Shown here: positions 1,984 through 16,401 of the stretch, one piece after another | How positions within the stretch are numbered: position 1 is the first letter of the stretch | Layout: each line of letters starts with the position of its first letter | DNA from: Pyrinomonadaceae bacterium | Lineage (GTDB): Bacteria > Acidobacteriota > Blastocatellia > Pyrinomonadales > Pyrinomonadaceae | Direction of reading: 5' to 3' | Assembly (NCBI GenBank): GCA_043772175.1 | Contig: JAYVGL010000167.1 | Location: 1 to 50,487, forward strand | DNA: 50,487 nt | Position numbers and translations under genes: made by a program | The notes under the pieces: model-generated | Seen by the model: only the letters and a program-made list of their open reading frames with translations | Database searches by the model: none | Told to the model about the DNA's origin: nothing

Positions 1984-2847
1984 TCAGTAATTTGCTTTTA
2001 ATTCATCAACCATTTTAACCGCACCTTCGATGTCGCCTTTATAGACTATCTGCCCGTTTCGGTTGATGACAAAAGTCGTCGGATAACCTTTCACGCCAAA
2101 TTTTTCAGCTAAATCTTCGTCTGTCGTAACGACTACCGGAAAACCGTATCCCTCTTGACGAATATCGTCAAAGGCTTGATTCGGTTTATCTTCTTCAATC
2201 GGTTTATTAACGGCTAAAATCATTACGGACGAATCGTTTTTATATTTGTCGTAAACGCCTTGAACTTGCGGAAATTTCTCGAAACAAATTCCGCAACGTG
2301 TGAACCAAAAATCGAGTAAAACGATTTTATTTCTGAAATTCTCATCCGCGACGAAAATTTTTTGTTCGTCAAATGCTTCAAATTTTGTTGGCAAATTATA
2401 CGCCCGAACTTTTGCGGTATAAGTTCCATAGTTAATTCTATGAATCCAGTAATCCCAACCTTGAAAAAACATAAACACTACGAAGCAACTACTTAAGGAA
2501 AAAAACAGGATATTTTTCGGTAATTTATTTTTGTAGTAGAAGTAAGCAGAAATAACGCCTAAGCAATAGGTAATTACTACTGGTAAAGTGTAAGGATCAC
2601 CCTTCAAAAACGTGAAGATCGTATATAATTGAAGGGGAAACATTGTTCCGAAAATAATTGCTACAATTGAAATCACCGGCAGTTTTCTACTGAAAACTTT
2701 GAAAAAAAATAATGTGAGGTAAAAATAGCCGATAAATGAGAGTAAGGTAATAAAGTAAACTTTATTTGAAATAAACGGTATTGACAACGGCATTACCAAA
2801 GAAACTAAAAGTATTACAGCGAATGCTTCGAGGATGGCTTTATACAT
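1984..2847 (-). CDS. polytopic membrane protein fused to a TlpA/ResA-like thioredoxin-fold thiol-disulfide oxidoreductase
   Basis: Several N-terminal TM helices are followed by LLDFWFTRCGICFEKFP (CxxC = CGIC) and KGYPTTFVI (cis-Pro loop). ATG at 2847 (MYKAILEAF) is preferred over the longer track ORF. The gene is strongly AT-rich. Confidence 0.85.
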   Translation of the reverse strand: MYKAILEAFAVILLVSLVMPLSIPFISNKVYFITLLSFIGYFYLTLFFFKVFSRKLPVISIVAIIFGTMFPLQLYTIFTFLKGDPYTLPVVITYCLGVISAYFYYKNKLPKNILFFSLSSCFVVFMFFQGWDYWIHRINYGTYTAKVRAYNLPTKFEAFDEQKIFVADENFRNKIVLLDFWFTRCGICFEKFPQVQGVYDKYKNDSSVMILAVNKPIEEDKPNQAFDDIRQEGYGFPVVVTTDEDLAEKFGVKGYPTTFVINRNGQIVYKGDIEGAVKMVDELKANY

Positions 2848-2865
2848 ATAAAAATTTTTGAGGCG

Positions 2866-2893
2866 AAAAAGGCAGTAGAAATACTGCCTTTTT
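2866..2893 (-). terminator. hairpin terminator between the two low-GC island genes
   Basis: AAGGCAGTA (2869-2877) pairs with TACTGCCTT (2882-2890) around a GAAA loop. An A-run on one side and a T-run on the other make it usable on either strand. Confidence 0.7.
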
Positions 2894-2932
2894 CGAGTAA
2901 GTTTTCGTCGAATCGCAAATCCCAATTACTGA

Positions 2933-3938
2933 CTAACCGCACAAATAGTTACATCTTGTTGTGCCATATGGTCCGCAATCCCCAACAGGTGAACTCTGAC
3001 AACCATTCGGTGCACCGCAAGAAGGGTCTCCTTCACAATAAAAATTACAGTTGCAGACGCCAGCCCTTGGGTTCTCGGTAGTGACAGGTTCGTCTTTCAC
3101 GTATTTCTGAATTCCAAGCGACATAAAAACTGCGAATCCTTCCTCTTTAGTAAAAGCATTTAAAATGCTTGACAGCAAAAGTTCCTCAGCTTTGGATTCT
3201 TCTTCTTTTGTAAGATTCAAACGGGCGGTAAAAGTTTCAGGAGATAATGTTGTCAGCATCTCTAAAACAAACTCGTTTTGAAATTTTGCAAATTTTCCTG
3301 TAGCTAAATGATACGCCAACTGAGTTTTCCAGATGTTTACCCGATCATTTACAAACATCTCTTTGACAATCTTCCTTCTCGCTTTCATTCCATTCTTCAG
3401 CAAATCCTCATACTTCTGTAAGAGTGTCACTTCTTCATCTTTGCTTGTGTTCAAAGGCTCAACAAAATCGCCTGCCTCCTTGGACGGAAACAACCCGAAG
3501 GCTCTGTTTATCATCTCTAGTCCGCTTTGCTCATTGCGTTTTACTTTTTCAGGATCGGATTTCTCGTAAATATCAGCGGAAACTTTTGAGATTGCGTCTA
3601 AAACAAATTCTCGCTGCTCTTTTGTCATGTTCGGTCGCTTGATGAACTGTAAAGCCAGATTAACTCTTATAAAAGATGCTTTTTGTTCGTTAGATAGTTT
3701 TGAAAATGATGAGCGTCTTTCTTTTGCTGGTAAAGATGCCACTCTCACAAAGTCTCCATACGCCTCGTTGTTTACAGAGATGGATGAAGGTAAAACAAGT
3801 TTCCTGAAGCATTTCGATTGAGGTTGTTCAATTTTCGGAGAGTCTTGCTTTTGAGCAGAAACGGTTGTTGGAAATGTGCTTAAAAGCACGCCGACGGTAA
3901 AAAGCGCAAGTAACGCTAAGTTGTTTTTTTTTGTTCAT
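2933..3938 (-). CDS. exported protein with an 8-Cys C-terminal tail (bacteriocin-like candidate); reading frame broken at an A9 run after the start codon
   Basis: GGAGG lies 8 nt upstream of ATG 3938. With one A fewer the N-terminus reads MNKKNNLALLALFTVGVLLSTFPTTVSAQ, a signal peptide. The body ORF is 2933..3889. The last 40 aa are VCNCNFYCEGDPSCGAPNGCQSSPVGDCGPYGTTRCNYLCG. Confidence 0.6.
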
Positions 3939-4104: not shown

Positions 4105-5454
4105 ATGAGCAGAAAAAGCATTTTAGTCGTTGACGACGAGAAAAGTCAGCGCGAGATTTTGGAGATGATACTGTCGGGCGAAGGCTACGATGTCACGATG
4201 GCTTCGTCTGGGGAGGCGGCGATGAAGTTTGTCGCCGACCGGCATTTTGATCTGGTTTTGACTGATTTGAAAATGACGGGAATGAGCGGTCTGGATTTGC
4301 TGAAAGAGTTGACTGATTTCGATAAGTCTATTATCGTCCTGCTTTTAACGGCGCACGGGACGGTTGATTCCGCCGTTGACGCGCTGCGTTTGGGCGCGTT
4401 CGATTTTTTGCAGAAACCTTACGACCGCGACAAACTGCTCGAAACTATCTCACGCGCACTGAACAAACTTTCGGCACTCGATTCGGAAATCGTCTCCGAT
4501 TCGCCGGAGATGGATAAGGTGAAAAAACTGATCTTGAAGGTGGCGAAGTCGAACTCGACCGTTTTGATTCGCGGCGAATCGGGAACGGGCAAGGAATTAA
4601 TCGCCCGCGCCATTCATAAAAACTCGCTGCGGACGAGCGAAGTTTTTCAAGCCGTCAACTGCGCGGCGATCAACGAAAATCTGCTCGAAAGCGAACTTTT
4701 CGGACACGAAAAAGGAAGTTTTACGGGCGCGGTCGGCGAGAAAAAAGGTTTGTTTGAAATCGCCGACAACGGCACGCTTTTCCTTGACGAAATCGGCGAA
4801 CTCGATATTTCACTGCAAGCGAAAATTCTCCGCGCTTTGCAGGAAAAGCAAATTCGGCGGGTTGGCGGCATTCGTGAAATTGACGTTGACGTGCGCGTCG
4901 TTACGGCGACGAACCGCGATCTGCTGAAGATGTCGCAGGAAGGACGTTTCCGCGAAGATTTATATTATCGCCTGAACGTGCTTTCGATTGAGTTGCCCGC
5001 GCTGCGGGAGCGGCGTTCGGACGTTCCGGTGCTGATTGATTATTTTTTGGCGAAACACACACGCGGCACGAACCGGAAAGTCGCACTCGATAAAGATGCG
5101 CGGCGAATCTTGGAAAATTACGGTTATCCAGGCAACGTCCGCCAGCTCGAATCGGCACTCGAACGCGCCGTTCTATTGTGCGAAAACAACACGATCACGG
5201 CGGAAGATTTGCCGCCGGAGATGTCGCAGTCGGCGAGACCTTCGTCGGCAAATGATTTGTTCAAACTGCCCGCCGAAGGCATCAATTTTGAAGATGTCGA
5301 GCGCAGTTTGATAATGCAGGCGATGGAGCGAACCGATAATAACATCACGAAATCGGCGAAACTTTTGGGTTTGACGTTTCGGACTTTGCAATACCGATTG
5401 GAAAAATTCGGCTACAAGAAAGACGCGGGCGCGGAAGCGGAAGACGAGGCGTAA
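4105..5454 (+). CDS. sigma-54-dependent Fis-family response regulator (NtrC-like)
   Basis: Receiver domain (ILVVDDE ... LVLTDLKMTGMSG), AAA+ Walker A GESGTGKE, GAFTGA-type loop GSFTGA, Walker B LFLDEIGE, and C-terminal HTH NITKSAKLLGLTFRTLQYRL. ATG 4105 (MSRKSILVVDD) is preferred. Confidence 0.93.
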   Translation: MSRKSILVVDDEKSQREILEMILSGEGYDVTMASSGEAAMKFVADRHFDLVLTDLKMTGMSGLDLLKELTDFDKSIIVLLLTAHGTVDSAVDALRLGAFDFLQKPYDRDKLLETISRALNKLSALDSEIVSDSPEMDKVKKLILKVAKSNSTVLIRGESGTGKELIARAIHKNSLRTSEVFQAVNCAAINENLLESELFGHEKGSFTGAVGEKKGLFEIADNGTLFLDEIGELDISLQAKILRALQEKQIRRVGGIREIDVDVRVVTATNRDLLKMSQEGRFREDLYYRLNVLSIELPALRERRSDVPVLIDYFLAKHTRGTNRKVALDKDARRILENYGYPGNVRQLESALERAVLLCENNTITAEDLPPEMSQSARPSSANDLFKLPAEGINFEDVERSLIMQAMERTDNNITKSAKLLGLTFRTLQYRLEKFGYKKDAGAEAEDEA

Positions 5455-5487
5455 GCGGGTTAAAATCCGCGTGTGAGGTGAGAAATT

Positions 5488-5736
5488 ATGTTGACGATTG
5501 AAGGGATTTATAAAGACGGCAAAATCGAGTTGCTCGAAACCGTGTCCGAGATGAAGCAGTCAAAAGTTTTGATAACTTTTATCGAGAACAGCGATGTTGA
5601 CTTACAAACTTTAGGCATTGGTCGGGAGGAAGCCGGGGATTTGCGCGAAAAGTTTGCGGCTTTTGAAGATTGGAACGATCCCGCGCTCGACGTTTACGAC
5701 GATTATGACAACGCCAAATCAGCCCTCGGCGAATAA
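5488..5736 (+). CDS. putative antitoxin (DUF104-like N-terminus)
   Basis: GAGGTGAG ribosome-binding site. The N-terminus IEGIYKDGKIELLE resembles the DUF104 antitoxin family. The C-terminus is acidic, and a MazF-like gene lies immediately downstream and overlaps. Confidence 0.65.
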   Translation: MLTIEGIYKDGKIELLETVSEMKQSKVLITFIENSDVDLQTLGIGREEAGDLREKFAAFEDWNDPALDVYDDYDNAKSALGE

Positions 5737-6079
5737 AATAGAACGCAGCAGTGTTGTATTGCTGCCGTTTCCGAATTCGGATTTGCGGACTGCTAAACTG
5801 CGCCCCGCTTTAGTCATTCAGGCGGACGGATTAGAAACCGGACTGGAGCAGATTATCTTGGCGATGATTAGCAGTAACTTGAGTCGCGCCGAACATCAAT
5901 CACGAATTCTAATTGAGACGAAAACAGAAGCGGGAAAACAAAGCGGACTGCTTTTCGACTCGGTGATAATGACCGGCAATTTGGCAACGGTCGCTTCGCC
6001 GAGAGTTACGAGAATTATCGGAAAACTAGAAGCGATGCGCGACGTTAACGACGCTCTGCGCCACACCCTTAAATTGTAA
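5705..6079 (+). CDS. PemK/MazF-family toxin (endoribonuclease type)
   Basis: SSVVLLPFPNSDLRTAKLRPALVI matches the MazF/PemK N-terminal beta-strand motif. The size is about 124 aa. ATG 5705 overlaps the upstream gene by 32 nt. Confidence 0.75.
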   Translation: MTTPNQPSANKIERSSVVLLPFPNSDLRTAKLRPALVIQADGLETGLEQIILAMISSNLSRAEHQSRILIETKTEAGKQSGLLFDSVIMTGNLATVASPRVTRIIGKLEAMRDVNDALRHTLKL

Positions 6080-6120: not shown

Positions 6121-7350
6121 ATGTCGAGCAAAACAAATTATACGGCGGCTTGGCTTTTTTTACCGGCAATCGCTTTGGCGGTTTTCGCAATCACGGCGAT
6201 TCCGGTGTGGCTGATTCAGCCGTTTGCGCCGCAGACGGAGAACGCGCTGCAAATTTCGTATTTTTTGAAATCGTGGTCGCCGATTTTTACATTAGCGGCG
6301 TTGTTCACGTCTATTGCGCTAATTGTTTTTCTCTGGCGCAATTTAAAGCGTCGGTTCGCCAAAGCGTTGCTGTTTTTCCCGCTCATCACCATTTTGCCGT
6401 GCGTCTGGTTTGCGCGGCAGAATCATTTTGAATGGATGTTTAATCCGCTCGATCAAACCGCGTTTACGACGGTGAGCGAAGCCGATTTCGTGGCGGATGA
6501 CGAGATGGTTTTGGCGGTCAAAATAAATGGTGAAGCGGTCGCTTATCCGGTGCGGCAGATGGCTTATCACCACGTCGTCGCGGATGTCGCCGGCGGACAG
6601 CCGATTACGGCGACTTACTGAACGCTCTGCCACACGGGAATTGTGTGGCAGTCCGTCGTGAACGGGCAGACTTTGAGATTTCGCCTTGCCGGAATCAACA
6701 ACCAAAATTTTATAATGCGCGACGAAGAAACCGGCTCGTGGTGGCAGCAGGTTTCGGGCGAAGCGATTCAAGGTTCGCTCAAAGGTCAGAAACTCGAAAA
6801 CGTCGCTATGGACGAACTGACTTTCGCTGTTTGGAAGCGCGAAAATCCGAGCGGGCGCGTTTTGCGTCCCGATGAAAAGATTTTGGCAGCGAACAAATAT
6901 GAAGCGGCGGATTGGGAAAACGAGGTGGCGAAAATGCCGGTGAGAATCGGCGATAGATTAGATAAAACGCTGGAGCCGCGCACTTTGATTGTCGGCATCT
7001 CCGTTAACGGCAAAACCAAAGCGTATCCGTTTTCGGCGGTCGAGAAACAATCGCCGATTTTAGATTCGGTCGGCGGCACGGCGATATTGATTGTGCTTAA
7101 CGAAGATAAAAAATCGGTTCGCGCTTTTGAAAGAACGGTTGACGGGAAAACTCTGGAATTTTTCGTCAAGCCGGAAACTGCCGAAGTCGTTGACGCGGAA
7201 ACGGGCAGCGTTTGGAATTTTGCGGGCGAGGCGACGGGCGGCGAAGCGACGGGCAAACAGCTTAAGCAAATCCAAGTTTTGAAAGATTACTGGTTCGACT
7301 GGAAAAACTACAATCCCGAAACGCAGCTTTACGCGCCCGGTTCCCGCTGA
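6121..7350 (+). CDS. membrane-anchored DUF3179 protein with a single in-frame TGA (6619-6621); candidate selenoprotein, otherwise a pseudogene
   Basis: ORFs 6121..6621 and 6643..7350 share one frame (522 nt apart). The junction reads ITATY-TGA-TLCHTGIVWQSV. Both DUF3179 halves are present (ING.AVAYP, RDEETGSWWQQVSGEAIQG, DAETGSVWNFAGEA). Confidence 0.6.
6627..6651 (+). promoter_or_regulatory. candidate bacterial SECIS hairpin
   Basis: CTGCCACAC (6627-6635) pairs perfectly with GTGTGGCAG (6643-6651). The 7-nt loop is GGGAATT. The stem begins 5 nt after the TGA. Confidence 0.5.
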
Positions 7351-7434
7351 TTTCGATTGAGTTGCAACATATAGAAAACTGATGCGGCGGAAAGATTTTT
7401 CGATTCCGAACGCGATTTGAAACAACGTGAAAAT

Positions 7435-8859
7435 ATGCAGAAACCACCCGCCGAACTAAAAAAGCGAACGCGGAAAATGAACAAAAAAGTCGTTCGCAAA
7501 AAGGCGAAATACGTTTTGTGCTGGCTCCAACAGAACCTTCGCGCTTTTGACAATCCGATTATTGACGCGGCGATTGCGGCAGGGAACAATTTGAATCTGC
7601 CGGTCGTCGTTTATCACGGGCTGGGGCAAAAATATCCGTACGCCAACGACCGTCTGCACAAATTTATCGTCGAAGCCGCCGCCGCGCTCGCGCCCGCCGT
7701 CGAAGAACGCGGACTGCGCTGTCTGAATTACATCGAGCGTCCGGGGAAATATGAAAAAGGTTTGGTTTATCGTTTGGCAAAAGACGCGGCGGCGATTTTT
7801 ACCGACGACGTTCCGGCATACATCGTGCGCCGGCAAACTGAAAGCGTCGCCGCCAAAGCCGATCTCGCGGTGTTCGCCGTTGACGCTTCGTGCGTCGTGC
7901 CGATGAACGAATTTCCGTTTCAAGCCGAAGCGAACGCTTTTTTTCGCCGCGCTCACACGCCTTTTCGGGAGCAGTATCTGAACGCAAAAACCGAAATGTC
8001 GCCGGAAATTTCACGTTACGAAGACGGATTCGATTTTGAGCCGGACGATTTGGCGACACTGGACACTGATAAACTGATCGCCGAATGCGAGATTGACCAC
8101 AGCGTTTTGTCGGTCGAAAGTTTTTCCGGTTCGCGGGAAGCGGCTTTGCGGCGTTTGCAGTGGGCGTGCGAAAAGGTTCTGCCGGTTTACGAAAGTATGC
8201 GCTCGAATCCGGCGCATCCTTTGTGCGGGACGCGCCTTTCGCCTTACCTGCATTTCGGCGTTTTGAGTGCGCGGGAAGTTATTTGGGAAATTCGCAAACA
8301 CGCGGACGGCAAGCAGAAAAACTGGCGCGTTTCGGATGAAATTTTATCGTGGCGCGAATTTTTTCATCATCAGGCGCGGTTTGAAAACGATCCGGCGGCT
8401 TACGAAACGCTGCCTGGATGGGCGCGGGAAACTCTCGCTAAACACGCGCCCGAACGCGCTGGTTCGCCGACGCTCGACCAGATTATTCACGGCGAAACCG
8501 AGGATGAAACGTGGAACGCAGCGCAGAAACAATATCTTTTGGAAGCGTGGATGCCGAATAATATCCGTATGTATTGGGGCAAACGGCTGGTCGGCTGGCG
8601 CAAAACGCCGGAAGAAGCGTGGCGGACGGCGTGTTATCTGAACGACCGTTTCAGTCTCGACGGGCGCGACGCGGCGACTTACGGCAACCTCGCCTGGTGT
8701 TTCGGCAAAATAAATCACCCGTCGGGCGAACACGAAATTTACGGCAGAGTCGGGCGACCGTGGGACGCGGCGATGCGGAAACGAAAAGGTGTCAGCGAAT
8801 GGCTCGCCGAACAAGCCAAGCGCGAAACTTACCGCGTTTTCGTCCCGGAAGAAGTTTGA
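7435..8859 (+). CDS. class II-type deoxyribodipyrimidine photolyase-like flavoprotein
   Basis: NNIRMYWGKRLVGW and LNDRFSLDGRDAATYGNLAWCFG resemble the class II photolyase C-terminal FAD-binding region. Alternative starts are TTG 7417 and ATG 7477. Confidence 0.8.
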   Translation: MQKPPAELKKRTRKMNKKVVRKKAKYVLCWLQQNLRAFDNPIIDAAIAAGNNLNLPVVVYHGLGQKYPYANDRLHKFIVEAAAALAPAVEERGLRCLNYIERPGKYEKGLVYRLAKDAAAIFTDDVPAYIVRRQTESVAAKADLAVFAVDASCVVPMNEFPFQAEANAFFRRAHTPFREQYLNAKTEMSPEISRYEDGFDFEPDDLATLDTDKLIAECEIDHSVLSVESFSGSREAALRRLQWACEKVLPVYESMRSNPAHPLCGTRLSPYLHFGVLSAREVIWEIRKHADGKQKNWRVSDEILSWREFFHHQARFENDPAAYETLPGWARETLAKHAPERAGSPTLDQIIHGETEDETWNAAQKQYLLEAWMPNNIRMYWGKRLVGWRKTPEEAWRTACYLNDRFSLDGRDAATYGNLAWCFGKINHPSGEHEIYGRVGRPWDAAMRKRKGVSEWLAEQAKRETYRVFVPEEV

Positions 8860-8868
8860 GTTGAAAAG

Positions 8869-9002
8869 ATGTTTAGAAACCCAGAATTTTGCCCACGAAA
8901 TACACGAATCAAACGAAAAAAGACAAAAATCACTTTAACGCCCGATTTAATTTTTCGTGAATTTAGTGTGTTTCGTGGGCAAAATTCTGGGTTTCTAAAC
9001 AT
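8869..9002. repeat. 134-bp palindromic intergenic element (37-nt arms, 36/37 complementary)
   Basis: ATGTTTAGAAACCCAGAATTTTGCCCACGAAATACAC (8869-8905) pairs with its complement at 8966-9002. The inner segment GCCCACGAAATACACGAATCAAACGAAAAA recurs at 17531-17560 (28/30). Confidence 0.9.
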
Positions 9003-9086
9003 AGTTTTTAGTGGAAATTTGAAACGTCGTTTCTAAAAATTTCGTTTTACAATGTGAATGATTTTTCGTTTCGGGAGTAGGAAATT

Positions 9087-9713
9087 ATGGAATGGTTTTC
9101 AACCTTGAGTTTGGCACTCGGCACAGCCTGGACTTCGGGCATCAATCTTTACGCGACCGTCACGGTTTTGGGCTTGCTGCAAAAGTTTAATCTGACGCAT
9201 TTGCCCGGCGGTTTGGATGTTTTGGATAATTGGTGGATTATCGGCATCGCCGGATTTCTCTACGCGGTCGAGTTTTTCGCCGATAAAATTCCTTACGTTG
9301 ATTCGATCTGGGATGTCATACACACTTTTATCCGCGTTCCGGCGGGCGCAATTGTCGCTTACGCGGCGACGAATCAAACCGACGCGGGCGTTCAGACGAT
9401 TGCCGCTCTGCTCGGCGGCGGGCTGGCGTTTTCATCGCACGGCACGAAAACGGCTTTGCGGATGGGCGCGAACCTTTCGCCCGAACCCGTCTCCAACTGG
9501 ATTTTATCAATCGTCGAGGACATCATCGCCTTTGCGGGAACGCTTCTCGCGGTTTTCGCGCCGGTTTTGATTGCAATTGTCTTGCTGATTTTCGCCGTTT
9601 TCTTCATCTGGTTTTTCCCGAAAGTCGTGCGCGGCGTAAGAAAATTATTCGACGGCATTCGCGCACTTTTTCGCGGCGAAAATTACCGCGAAGCTGCTCG
9701 CAGGTCGGTTTGA
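9087..9713 (+). CDS. DUF4126 membrane protein
   Basis: TSGINLYATVTVLGLL ... AVEFFADKIPYVDSIWD is typical of DUF4126, and the protein has several TM helices. Confidence 0.8.
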   Translation: MEWFSTLSLALGTAWTSGINLYATVTVLGLLQKFNLTHLPGGLDVLDNWWIIGIAGFLYAVEFFADKIPYVDSIWDVIHTFIRVPAGAIVAYAATNQTDAGVQTIAALLGGGLAFSSHGTKTALRMGANLSPEPVSNWILSIVEDIIAFAGTLLAVFAPVLIAIVLLIFAVFFIWFFPKVVRGVRKLFDGIRALFRGENYREAARRSV

Positions 9714-15326: not shown

Positions 15327-15917
15327 ATGGGATTAGCGAAACTGAAAACGGCAACGCTTCTCACGCCCGAAGATTATTTAATTTTCGAGCGTGAAAGCGA
15401 TTCGCGCCACGACTACATTGACGGTGCAATCTTCAAGATGGCGGGCGAAAGTTTTTCGCACAGCCGGATTTGTATGAATTTGACGCGGGAAGTCGGAAAC
15501 AAACTAAAAGGCAAACCGTGTGAGGCGTTGTCGTCGAATATGAAAGTCCGCACGTCGAACGCGAGTTTGTTTTCATATCCTGATTTGACGATTGTCTGCG
15601 GCGAACCGCAGTTTCACGATGTCAAGAAAGACGTTTTTGAAGTTCTCTCGCCTTCGACCGCCGAATATGACCGGACGACGAAATTTCAGCGGTATCGAAT
15701 GAGCAACGAAACTTTGACCGACTATATTTTAATTTCGCAGGACAAATGTTTCGTCGAACGATTTACCAGACAAGCGAAAAATGATTGGTTTTACCGCAGT
15801 TTCGCCGCGCTCGAAGACAACTTGAAAATCGAATCCGTCGAATGCGAACTGAGTTTGCGGGAAATTTACGACCGTGTGGAATTGACGTTGGAAGACGAAG
15901 ATTTTGAGGAAGAATAA
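15327..15917 (+). CDS. Uma2-family (DUF820) endonuclease
   Basis: YIDGAIFKMAGES ... FEVLSPSTAEYDRTTKFQRY is typical of Uma2. Confidence 0.8.
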   Translation: MGLAKLKTATLLTPEDYLIFERESDSRHDYIDGAIFKMAGESFSHSRICMNLTREVGNKLKGKPCEALSSNMKVRTSNASLFSYPDLTIVCGEPQFHDVKKDVFEVLSPSTAEYDRTTKFQRYRMSNETLTDYILISQDKCFVERFTRQAKNDWFYRSFAALEDNLKIESVECELSLREIYDRVELTLEDEDFEEE

Positions 15918-15918
15918 A

Positions 15919-16401
15919 ATGGATTCACAGTTTTTGCAGGCGGAAGAACTCGGCATCAAACTTGAAATCGTCAACGGGTTGCCGGTTTGGGAAGCATCGC
16001 CGGTAATGCGCCATCAGATGGCAGTTGATCGCATTCGTGAATCAATTAAACATTCTGAAACAGCCGAGAACTGCGATTGTTTTCACGTCGCCGACATTTA
16101 CGTTCAGTTTCCCGACGGTTCGTTGAAGCGTCCCGACATTTCGATTTATTGTAAAACGCCGTCTGAAACCGACGAAGCCGTCAAAGATGTTCCCGATGCG
16201 GTGATCGAAATCATCAGCAAAGGTTATGAGAAAAAGGATTTGGAAATCGGCGTTCCGTTCTATTTGGCAAACGGTGTCAAAGATATTGTCGTTTTCAATC
16301 CATACACAGATGAAGTTTTGTATTTCCGAGATGGCGAAAAGCGCGAACTGACTTCGCCCATCGAGATCGAATTGGAATGCGGCTGTTCCTGCACGGTTTA
16401 A
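15919..16401 (+). CDS. Uma2-family (DUF820) endonuclease, second copy
   Basis: PDAVIEIISKGYEKKDLEIGVPFYLANGVKDIVVFNP. ATG 15919 follows the stop of the first copy directly. Confidence 0.8.
   Translation: MDSQFLQAEELGIKLEIVNGLPVWEASPVMRHQMAVDRIRESIKHSETAENCDCFHVADIYVQFPDGSLKRPDISIYCKTPSETDEAVKDVPDAVIEIISKGYEKKDLEIGVPFYLANGVKDIVVFNPYTDEVLYFRDGEKRELTSPIEIELECGCSCTV

Follow-up and report, generated by a model that had tools for sequence, protein, structure and literature searches.

A probable DUF3179 selenoprotein gene with a conserved SECIS-like hairpin in soil Pyrinomonadaceae and Blastocatellia

The DNA analysed here, hereafter the window, is a stretch of 50,487 nucleotides (positions 1 to 50,487 of contig JAYVGL010000167.1, assembly GCA_043772175.1) from a Pyrinomonadaceae bacterium of the phylum Acidobacteriota. 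At 6121-7350 it carries a gene of the DUF3179 family that gene callers cut into two open reading frames (ORFs), 6121-6621 and 6643-7350. Both share one frame and the sole stop between them is the TGA at 6619-6621, precisely as a preliminary description of this DNA had stated. Around the TGA, the readthrough product runs from GGQPITATY through the TGA into TLCHTGIVWQSVVNGQ, the peptide at the junction being ITATY-[TGA]-TLCHTGIVWQS. Our analyses support, with a probability of about 0.9, the reading of 6121-7350 as one genuine DUF3179 selenoprotein gene of the Pyrinomonadaceae/Blastocatellia (Acidobacteriota), in which the TGA would be decoded as selenocysteine (Sec) with the help of a selenocysteine insertion sequence (SECIS) situated immediately downstream. 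The features of the gene are the following:

6121 to 7350, + strand: complete putative selenoprotein gene of 409 codons, one of them for Sec, with its true stop TGA at 7348-7350
6136 to 6414, + strand: predicted N-terminal membrane anchor of three hydrophobic helices (residues ~6-37, 51-75 and 79-98), from hydropathy and charge count
6565 to 6573, + strand: codons TAT CAC CAC of Y149-H150-H151, in a loop 16 residues before the Sec position, from homolog conservation
6619 to 6621, + strand: UGA, putative Sec codon for residue 167, which opens the U-T-L-C motif and is aligned with the first cysteine (Cys) of the CxxC of homologs
6622 to 6624, + strand: possible 5' side of a lower stem (ACG), predicted to pair with 6654-6656 in minimum free energy (MFE) structures
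6627 to 6651, + strand: putative SECIS hairpin, 6627-6635 paired with 6643-6651, 9 bp (10 with G6636-U6642), spanning codons L169 to Q177
6628 to 6630, + strand: Cys170 codon TGC, second residue of UxxC, within the 5' arm of the hairpin, from the sequence and its relatives
6654 to 6656, + strand: possible 3' side of the lower stem (CGU within UCC GUC), predicted in MFE structures and not kept in the class B relatives described below

The 35 long ORFs of the window end in TAA (23), TGA (10) or TAG (2), and among the ordinary ORF-ending TGAs are those at 1383-1385 and 8857-8859, together with the one that closes the DUF3179 gene itself. Because TGA terminates 10 of these 35 ORFs, this gene included, a genome-wide reassignment of UGA does not account for the interruption, and the earlier statement that the code is not recoded holds.

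Membership of the DUF3179 family, which had been proposed from the letters of the sequence, was borne out by a full-length match of the readthrough product to PF11376 (E=1.8e-70; 238.1 bits against a gathering score of 27), covering profile positions 7-292 of 292 and residues 110-401 of the protein; a search against NCBIfam returned no matching model. Full-length homologs with 38-52% identity read ATY-C-TL-C-HTG, which places the TGA at the first Cys of a CxxC and yields the UxxC that the preliminary description had anticipated. Both of these Cys residues are invariant in 20 full-length homologs, and across 99 diverse family representatives the first column is Cys in 92 and the second in 91. 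The resulting motif, U167-T-L-C170, conforms to the UxxC/T published for the family. Database homologs closest to the protein (65-81% identity) are mostly fragments of 230-236 amino acids starting just past the TGA, while cluster representatives in many cases stop at residue 166 or begin at 175-180; as all these breaks fall around the position of the TGA, gene callers have evidently cut many orthologs at the same codon. The public records P0003-P0120 comprise dozens of such C-terminal fragments of 230-236 amino acids for the clade, P0034 among them, and one of the fragments carries the plain NCBI name 'DUF3179 domain-containing protein'. For the C-terminal fragment of the window itself, no entry was found in public assemblies.

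The conservation of the TGA was assessed in a set of 161 sequences, made up of the window, 80 loci from GTDB species genomes (one genome per species) and 80 metagenome contigs retrieved in a scan that was seeded with a Cys-form profile and aimed at Cys controls. The GTDB loci belong to Pyrinomonadaceae, Blastocatellia, Chloracidobacterium or other metagenome-assembled genomes of Acidobacteriota, and their proteins are 55-78% identical to that of the window. The homologous codon is TGA in 80/80 GTDB loci and in 79/80 metagenome contigs, the remaining contig (L125) having TGC. TGA-bearing orthologs, which the preliminary description had suggested looking for, therefore account for 160 of the 161 sequences, with a single TGC and neither TAA nor TAG, over relatives of 45-78% protein identity. 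The second residue of the motif, Cys170, is Cys in 161/161. Alignments obtained with tblastn cross the TGA in the 80 genomes, extending over residues 1-409, and every third-position difference in the codons of TLCHTG is synonymous. The Sec form is thus almost uniformly present in a large clade of soil Pyrinomonadaceae and Blastocatellia.

These data bear directly on two other explanations. Were the TGA a genuine stop, the locus would represent a pseudogene, or else a conserved split into a membrane anchor with half a domain and a separate second half, as might be suggested by the separate listing of the halves by gene callers and public databases (fragments of 230-236 residues, ends at 166, starts at 175-180) and by the presence of a GTG at 6643. 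However, a true stop would drift between TGA, TAA and TAG, whereas the only exception here is a Cys codon. It would also coincide with the leading Cys of an invariant CxxC and cut through the middle of a beta-strand/loop unit that belongs to a single compact domain. Furthermore, TLCHTG, the segment that precedes any restart codon after the TGA, is kept at the protein level, its only changes being synonymous, and the restart codons picked differ among relatives (VW in P0004 and P0034, MNG in P0003 and P0007). We consider a genuine stop extremely improbable. A sequencing or assembly error in place of TGC or TGT would demand a change of just one base, and one relative (L125) does have TGC, but the same TGA recurs in 159 independent assemblies from many projects and the probability of such an error is practically negligible. 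With TGA in 160/161 sequences and never TAA or TAG, we regard sequencing error, pseudogene and ordinary stop as ruled out.

Immediately downstream of the TGA, CTGCCACAC (6627-6635) is the exact reverse complement of GTGTGGCAG (6643-6651). The two arms enclose the loop GGGAAUU (6636-6642) and overlap the codons of the active-site motif, and the loop starts 17 nucleotides from the U of UGA; this perfect 9-bp hairpin was found exactly as it had been described. Its core of 25 nucleotides folds at -15.7 kcal/mol, and an extra G6636-U6642 pair reduces the loop to GGAAU. In a context of 61 nucleotides the folding energy is -24.5 kcal/mol (z = -2.3), a value that is modest alone, with 6/200 shuffles folding as well. 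Perfect hairpins of at least 9 bp occur at nine distinct sites of the window (15 nested counts, against a shuffle mean of 1.2), most of them intergenic, so that the hairpin by itself is not extraordinary. The argument that such a palindrome would be improbable by chance consequently fails for the hairpin alone and stands for its position and its conservation: we estimate at roughly 0.3% the chance of finding it right after this in-frame TGA, and its significance lies in that position and in its conservation among relatives.

Three variants of the hairpin could be distinguished. In class A, which includes the window and encodes VWQ, the sequence reads CUC UGC CAC ACG GGA AUU GUG UGG CAG and forms 9-10 bp. 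Class B, encoding VWE, pairs U CAC ACC with GGU GUG G around the loop GGUCU (7 bp plus flanking pairs) and keeps the stem in the same register as class A. In class C, in which the Gly is replaced by Ala (CHTALVWER), the usual stem is lost and a different one, CCGCUC/GAGCGG, encloses UGGUCUGG and still puts GGUCU in the loop. The members of class C are metagenome contigs (L081-L084, L086, L088, L089, L092-L094 and L138).

Formal pair counts were made on 41 distinct sequences. Among them, 88% of stem cells pair, compared with 27-58% when the partners are slid, and the pair 15-27, formed by the wobble positions of His and Val, is CG in 34, UA in 7 and unpaired in none; the covariation score exceeded that of 500/500 shuffles. 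Over the 150 class A and B sequences, His CAC occurs with Val GTG 143 times and CAT with GTA seven times, with no mixed combination, and CAT/GTA arose in at least two separate groups whose nearest relatives have CAC/GTG. Class C serves as a control, having His CAT with an uncompensated Val GTC at a pair that lies outside its own stem. A similar pattern emerges from codon usage on both sides of the UGA. The Thr two codons before it is encoded by ACT (93), ACC (53), ACG (11) or ACA (4), while the Thr directly after it is ACG in 156/160 although Thr has four codons, and further downstream the codons are dominated by CTC (136), CAC (151), GGT (121), CTG (128) and GTG (143). Synonymous variation is therefore free before the UGA and nearly fixed directly after it. 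The constraint on the ACG could reflect pairing in the predicted lower stem (6622-6624 with 6654-6656), seen in the fold predicted for sequences of the window-like class, or equally an effect of UGA context. Taken together, the pair counts, the repeated origins of CAT/GTA, the class C control and the collapse of synonymous variation indicate that the stem is selected as RNA, and the hairpin that had been described for this one gene is conserved, with compensatory changes and in the same register, in its TGA-bearing orthologs.

Several observations weigh against the selenoprotein reading and have to be balanced with this evidence. Complementarity is partly built into the peptide, the codons for Cys-His-Thr (UGY CAY AC) being intrinsically near-complementary to those for Val-Trp-Gln (GU NUG GCA), and the Cys forms closest to the Sec clade, L161 and L125, keep the hairpin. 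The structure might accordingly be a by-product of encoding C-H-T-G-x-V-W-Q, with no role in decoding, and the folding of the Cys forms L161, L162 and L125 into the hairpin would fit that explanation. Six Cys-form genes encoding the same peptide, a small sample, were used as controls. Four of them (L163-L166), with the peptide CHTG[LI]VW, have Val GTC or GTT and no hairpin, and L162 retains a shorter stem. Because four of the six lose the stem through GTC or GTT while coding for the same residues, the CHT...VWQ peptide does not force the hairpin. In addition, a by-product would explain neither the covariation of free wobble positions without a single mixed combination, nor the collapse of synonymous variation downstream of the UGA only, nor the different stem that accompanies the Gly to Ala change of class C and presents the same GGUCU loop; we consider it highly improbable. 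L161 (1661-2899, protein P0001), the Cys form nearest to the Sec clade, and L125, the single TGC variant from metagenomes, are TGC genes with the exact class B SECIS nucleotide sequence, which is consistent with a recent Sec-to-Cys conversion that left the SECIS behind; for L125, known from a single contig, a sequencing error is possible instead.

A second group of unfavourable observations concerns the fit to known SECIS elements. The bacterial consensus comprises a loop of 3-9 nucleotides, an upper stem of 4-16 bp, a G in the first two loop positions, a distance of 16-37 nucleotides from UGA to loop and an MFE of at most -7.5 kcal/mol (PMC13188914). The hairpin of the window, with a loop of 7 or 5 nucleotides that begins with GG, a stem of 9-10 bp and -15.7 kcal/mol, falls within the limits for loop, stem, G positions and energy. 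Its spacing amounts to 14-15 intervening nucleotides, or 17-18 counted from the U, and lies at or just below a published range of 16-37 whose counting convention is unstated, so that the agreement with published bacterial SECIS elements claimed for it is complete except possibly for this distance. The spacing is also one codon shorter than what we take, on our own count, to be that of E. coli fdhF. A scan of the window against Rfam gave no SECIS or other family at the gathering threshold; with E up to 10, the only match in 6500-6800 was a chance microRNA.

The machinery for Sec insertion was likewise not seen in the sequences at hand. The 50 kb of the window contain no tRNA, and no sel gene was found among 34 long ORFs in a Pfam scan; tblastn with E. 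coli SelA, SelB and SelD gave no true match in the window and 166 loci (1.6 Mb), and neither the window nor the flanks of 60 loci yielded a tRNA-Sec. Their absence from such short stretches is expected by chance and is uninformative on the whole genome. The one weak match, an ORF at 902-2749 of L073 considered as a possible SelB beside the DUF3179 gene, proved to be LepA/EF4. Published work documents the use of Sec by Acidobacteria.

This lack of visible machinery, in sequences too short to tell, would also be compatible with a UGA that is translated but not as Sec, either as Cys through a tRNA with a UCA anticodon and a SelB-like factor, or through general suppression or recoding; Mukai and colleagues have reportedly described naturally occurring variant Sec systems in which Cys is inserted at UGA. 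Against this explanation, TGA serves the window as an ordinary stop (10/35 long ORFs), a hairpin specific to the site is the hallmark of SelB-type recoding, Sec use is on record for the phylum, and both DUF3179 and a neighbouring family considered next are catalogued as selenoproteins. We deem non-Sec decoding very unlikely.

That neighbouring family was found by scanning the related loci for other conserved in-frame TGAs. A second TGA-containing gene, of about 186 amino acids, is present in eight related loci, two of which (L062 and L072) are Blastocatellia genomes, and is not present in the window:

L062, 11380-11682, + strand: CMD-like gene with in-frame TGA
L072, 20578-20880, + strand: CMD-like gene with in-frame TGA
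L083, 1046-1342, - strand: CMD-like gene with in-frame TGA
L088, 416-718, - strand: CMD-like gene with in-frame TGA
L092, 521-820, - strand: CMD-like gene with in-frame TGA
L093, 1840-2142, - strand: CMD-like gene with in-frame TGA
L138, 1517-1816, - strand: CMD-like gene with in-frame TGA
L145, 2984-3283, - strand: CMD-like gene with in-frame TGA

Its product matches PF02627 (CMD) and TIGR01926 ("peroxidase-related enzyme") above cut-off and has the motif NRC[HF]Y-TGA-xxSHAEF, that is, a CxxU, with Cys at the same position in L165. The TGA is followed by an invariant hairpin, CACGCAGA-GUU-UCUGCGUG. In six of the eight loci the gene directly adjoins the DUF3179 Sec gene, in divergent or convergent orientation, and CMD-like CxxU proteins are listed as a selenoprotein family in a review table (PMC9312934, PMC13188914). 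The presence of this gene in relatives provides indirect support for the Sec reading of DUF3179, and its adjacency suggests that the two putative selenoproteins may form a functional pair. L165, a locus with the Cys form of DUF3179, has a CMD gene in its Cys form as well, two genes downstream at 5342-5935.

The following mechanism is consistent with these observations. During translation, Sec would be inserted at the UGA of 6619-6621. Located at 6627-6651 and beginning 5 nucleotides past the UGA, the mRNA hairpin would set its G-rich apical loop 14-15 nucleotides beyond the codon and, acting as a bacterial SECIS, would bring SelB-GTP-Sec-tRNA(Sec) to the ribosome, outcompeting release factor 2. 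The dependence on SelB is proposed by analogy with known systems. The predicted product has 409 residues, with three N-terminal transmembrane helices and a DUF3179 domain, probably periplasmic, that would harbour U167-T-L-C170. While the mechanism is stated conditionally, the integrity of the gene, the Sec/Cys column, the conservation of the TGA and an RNA-level constraint with covariation are direct observations, and the candidate selenoprotein with SECIS put forward in the preliminary description is strongly supported by the Cys column, the conserved TGA and the covarying hairpin.

As regards the protein, helices 2 and 3 are joined by the loop WRNLKRRFAK with its five K/R; under the positive-inside rule, the predicted topology is N-in, so that the DUF3179 domain would lie outside the cytoplasm, probably in the periplasm. 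An AlphaFold2 model of the homolog P0001 (pLDDT 89, pTM 0.85) has helices at 7-31, 40-74 and 78-99, and at least one hydrophobic segment precedes the domain in 87/99 diverse family members. Y149-H150-H151 are invariant in 20 full-length homologs; among the 99 diverse members, 90 have His at position 150, and position 151 is occupied by His in 60 and by Glu in 30. We regard this loop as a candidate to act with the UxxC in forming a metal or redox site.

Searching the PDB by sequence, with the single protein and with a profile, gave nothing meaningful. Foldseek with the beta-rich subdomain of the AlphaFold2 model retrieved Rieske-type ferredoxins as the best PDB matches (3gce, 5cxm and 1fqt), with E of 0.03-0.4 and TM-scores of ~0.5-0.65 normalised to the small target. 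As in the Rieske fold, two ligand-like loops flank a beta-hairpin, with HH-x15-CxxC here and CxH-x15-17-CxxH in Rieske proteins; unlike it, DUF3179 lacks a Cys in loop 1 and a conserved His following loop 2, and the two show no sequence similarity. Membership of the Rieske [2Fe-2S] proteins was rejected on the HH...CxxC pattern in place of CxH...CxxH, the Foldseek E of 0.03-0.4 and the absence of a sequence match, and the structural models offer a hint that DUF3179 is a possible distant structural analogue of the Rieske fold and not a member. A heme-c site (CxxCH) was rejected too, the His being invariant only in this clade and replaced in the 99 diverse members by a mixture of R (40), N (14) and H (12); that the published motif also allows UxxT (PMC9312934, PMC13188914) argues further against it.

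Judged from the motif, the most likely chemistry, and our best guess, is a periplasm-facing selenol/thiol (selenylsulfide) redox centre, the alternative being a metal-binding site that would involve the conserved H150-H151 loop. It tells against this assignment that the choice between redox and metal chemistry draws on motif logic and weak fold matches. A more specific proposal, which we consider unlikely, is that the DUF3179 protein of soil Acidobacteriota is an extracytoplasmic derivative of the Rieske fold in which Sec167/Cys170 and H150/H151 form a selenium-containing centre, working as a two-selenoprotein module with the CMD-like CxxU protein. If that were true, the near-universal Sec form would suggest a selenium-dependent function of ecological importance in soils.

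The genomic neighbourhood of the gene is weakly conserved. The only recurrent neighbour, a DUF4126 membrane-protein gene, directly follows the DUF3179 gene in 29/81 loci. In the window, DUF3179 and DUF4126 (9087-9713) are separated by a photolyase-like gene (7417-8859, weak PF00875 match), suggesting that a local insertion or rearrangement took place. Between the photolyase-like and DUF4126 genes, the spacer contains an inverted repeat (8864-9007) with 57-nucleotide arms at 8864-8920 and 8951-9007, 86% complementary and 30 nucleotides apart. The arms share an exact core of 29 nucleotides that has no further copy in the window, and the repeat may represent a terminator or the remnant of a small mobile element. 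Directly upstream of the selenoprotein gene, at 5488-6079, an ORF of 82 amino acids (5488-5736) overlaps a PemK/MazF-like toxin ORF (5618-6079, PF02452), a probable type II toxin-antitoxin pair. Elsewhere, two tandem, slightly overlapping genes of the Uma2 family (putative restriction endonuclease, PF05685) were found at 15327-16401. On the - strand at 1984-3889, a 313-amino-acid protein combines an uncharacterised N-terminal half of 180 amino acids with a thioredoxin-like/Redoxin domain at its C-terminus and is preceded by a 318-amino-acid ORF with no Pfam match; these two ORFs were rejected as a readthrough pair, being in different frames.

Contrary to the preliminary description, which knew of no report of DUF3179 as a selenoprotein family, the family had already been published as such. 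It is listed with the motif UxxC/T and example accessions by Zhang et al. 2022 (PMC9312934) and in a 2026 AEM review (PMC13188914), both of which credit Zhang and Gladyshev 2007 (PMC1976440); the 2007 paper contains unnamed "OS_HP" families, and its text does not show which of them equals DUF3179. A homolog also bears the NCBI product name 'DUF3179 domain-containing (seleno)protein'. The present case is therefore a correct selenoprotein call and not a discovery, and our additions are incremental: the near-universal Sec form in this clade, the misannotated fragments, the three SECIS variants overlapping the active site and the frequent second selenoprotein gene. They nevertheless describe a widespread soil-acidobacterial selenoprotein that is systematically under-annotated, being split or truncated in the window and in most public records of the clade. 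The three SECIS variants with clean covariation, together with Cys forms that carry a leftover hairpin, could help to improve models of bacterial SECIS elements, and the CMD-like adjacency and the hint of a Rieske-like fold offer an entry point to the function of DUF3179.

Compared with the published DUF3179 selenoproteins, this gene shares the Pfam family, the position of Sec, the UxxC and a SECIS-like hairpin directly downstream. The published examples come from a marine worm-symbiont metagenome and from accessions of metagenome-assembled genomes, whereas the present clade consists of soil Pyrinomonadaceae and Blastocatellia with a three-helix anchor and almost uniformly the Sec form. The AhpD/CMD-like CxxU selenoproteins resemble DUF3179 in that Sec replaces one Cys of a CxxC redox motif, and differ from it in their unrelated fold, in having Sec at the second motif position and in the lack of a membrane anchor. 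With respect to the fdhF-type SECIS of E. coli and the bSECISearch consensus, the hairpin is alike in lying within the coding region directly 3' of the UGA, in its small apical loop starting with GG and in a stem length and stability within the consensus; moreover, the class B loop GGUCU resembles what we take to be the fdhF loop, GGUC. The hairpin of the window differs from the fdhF type in having no bulged U and in a stem that starts from 5 nucleotides after the UGA.

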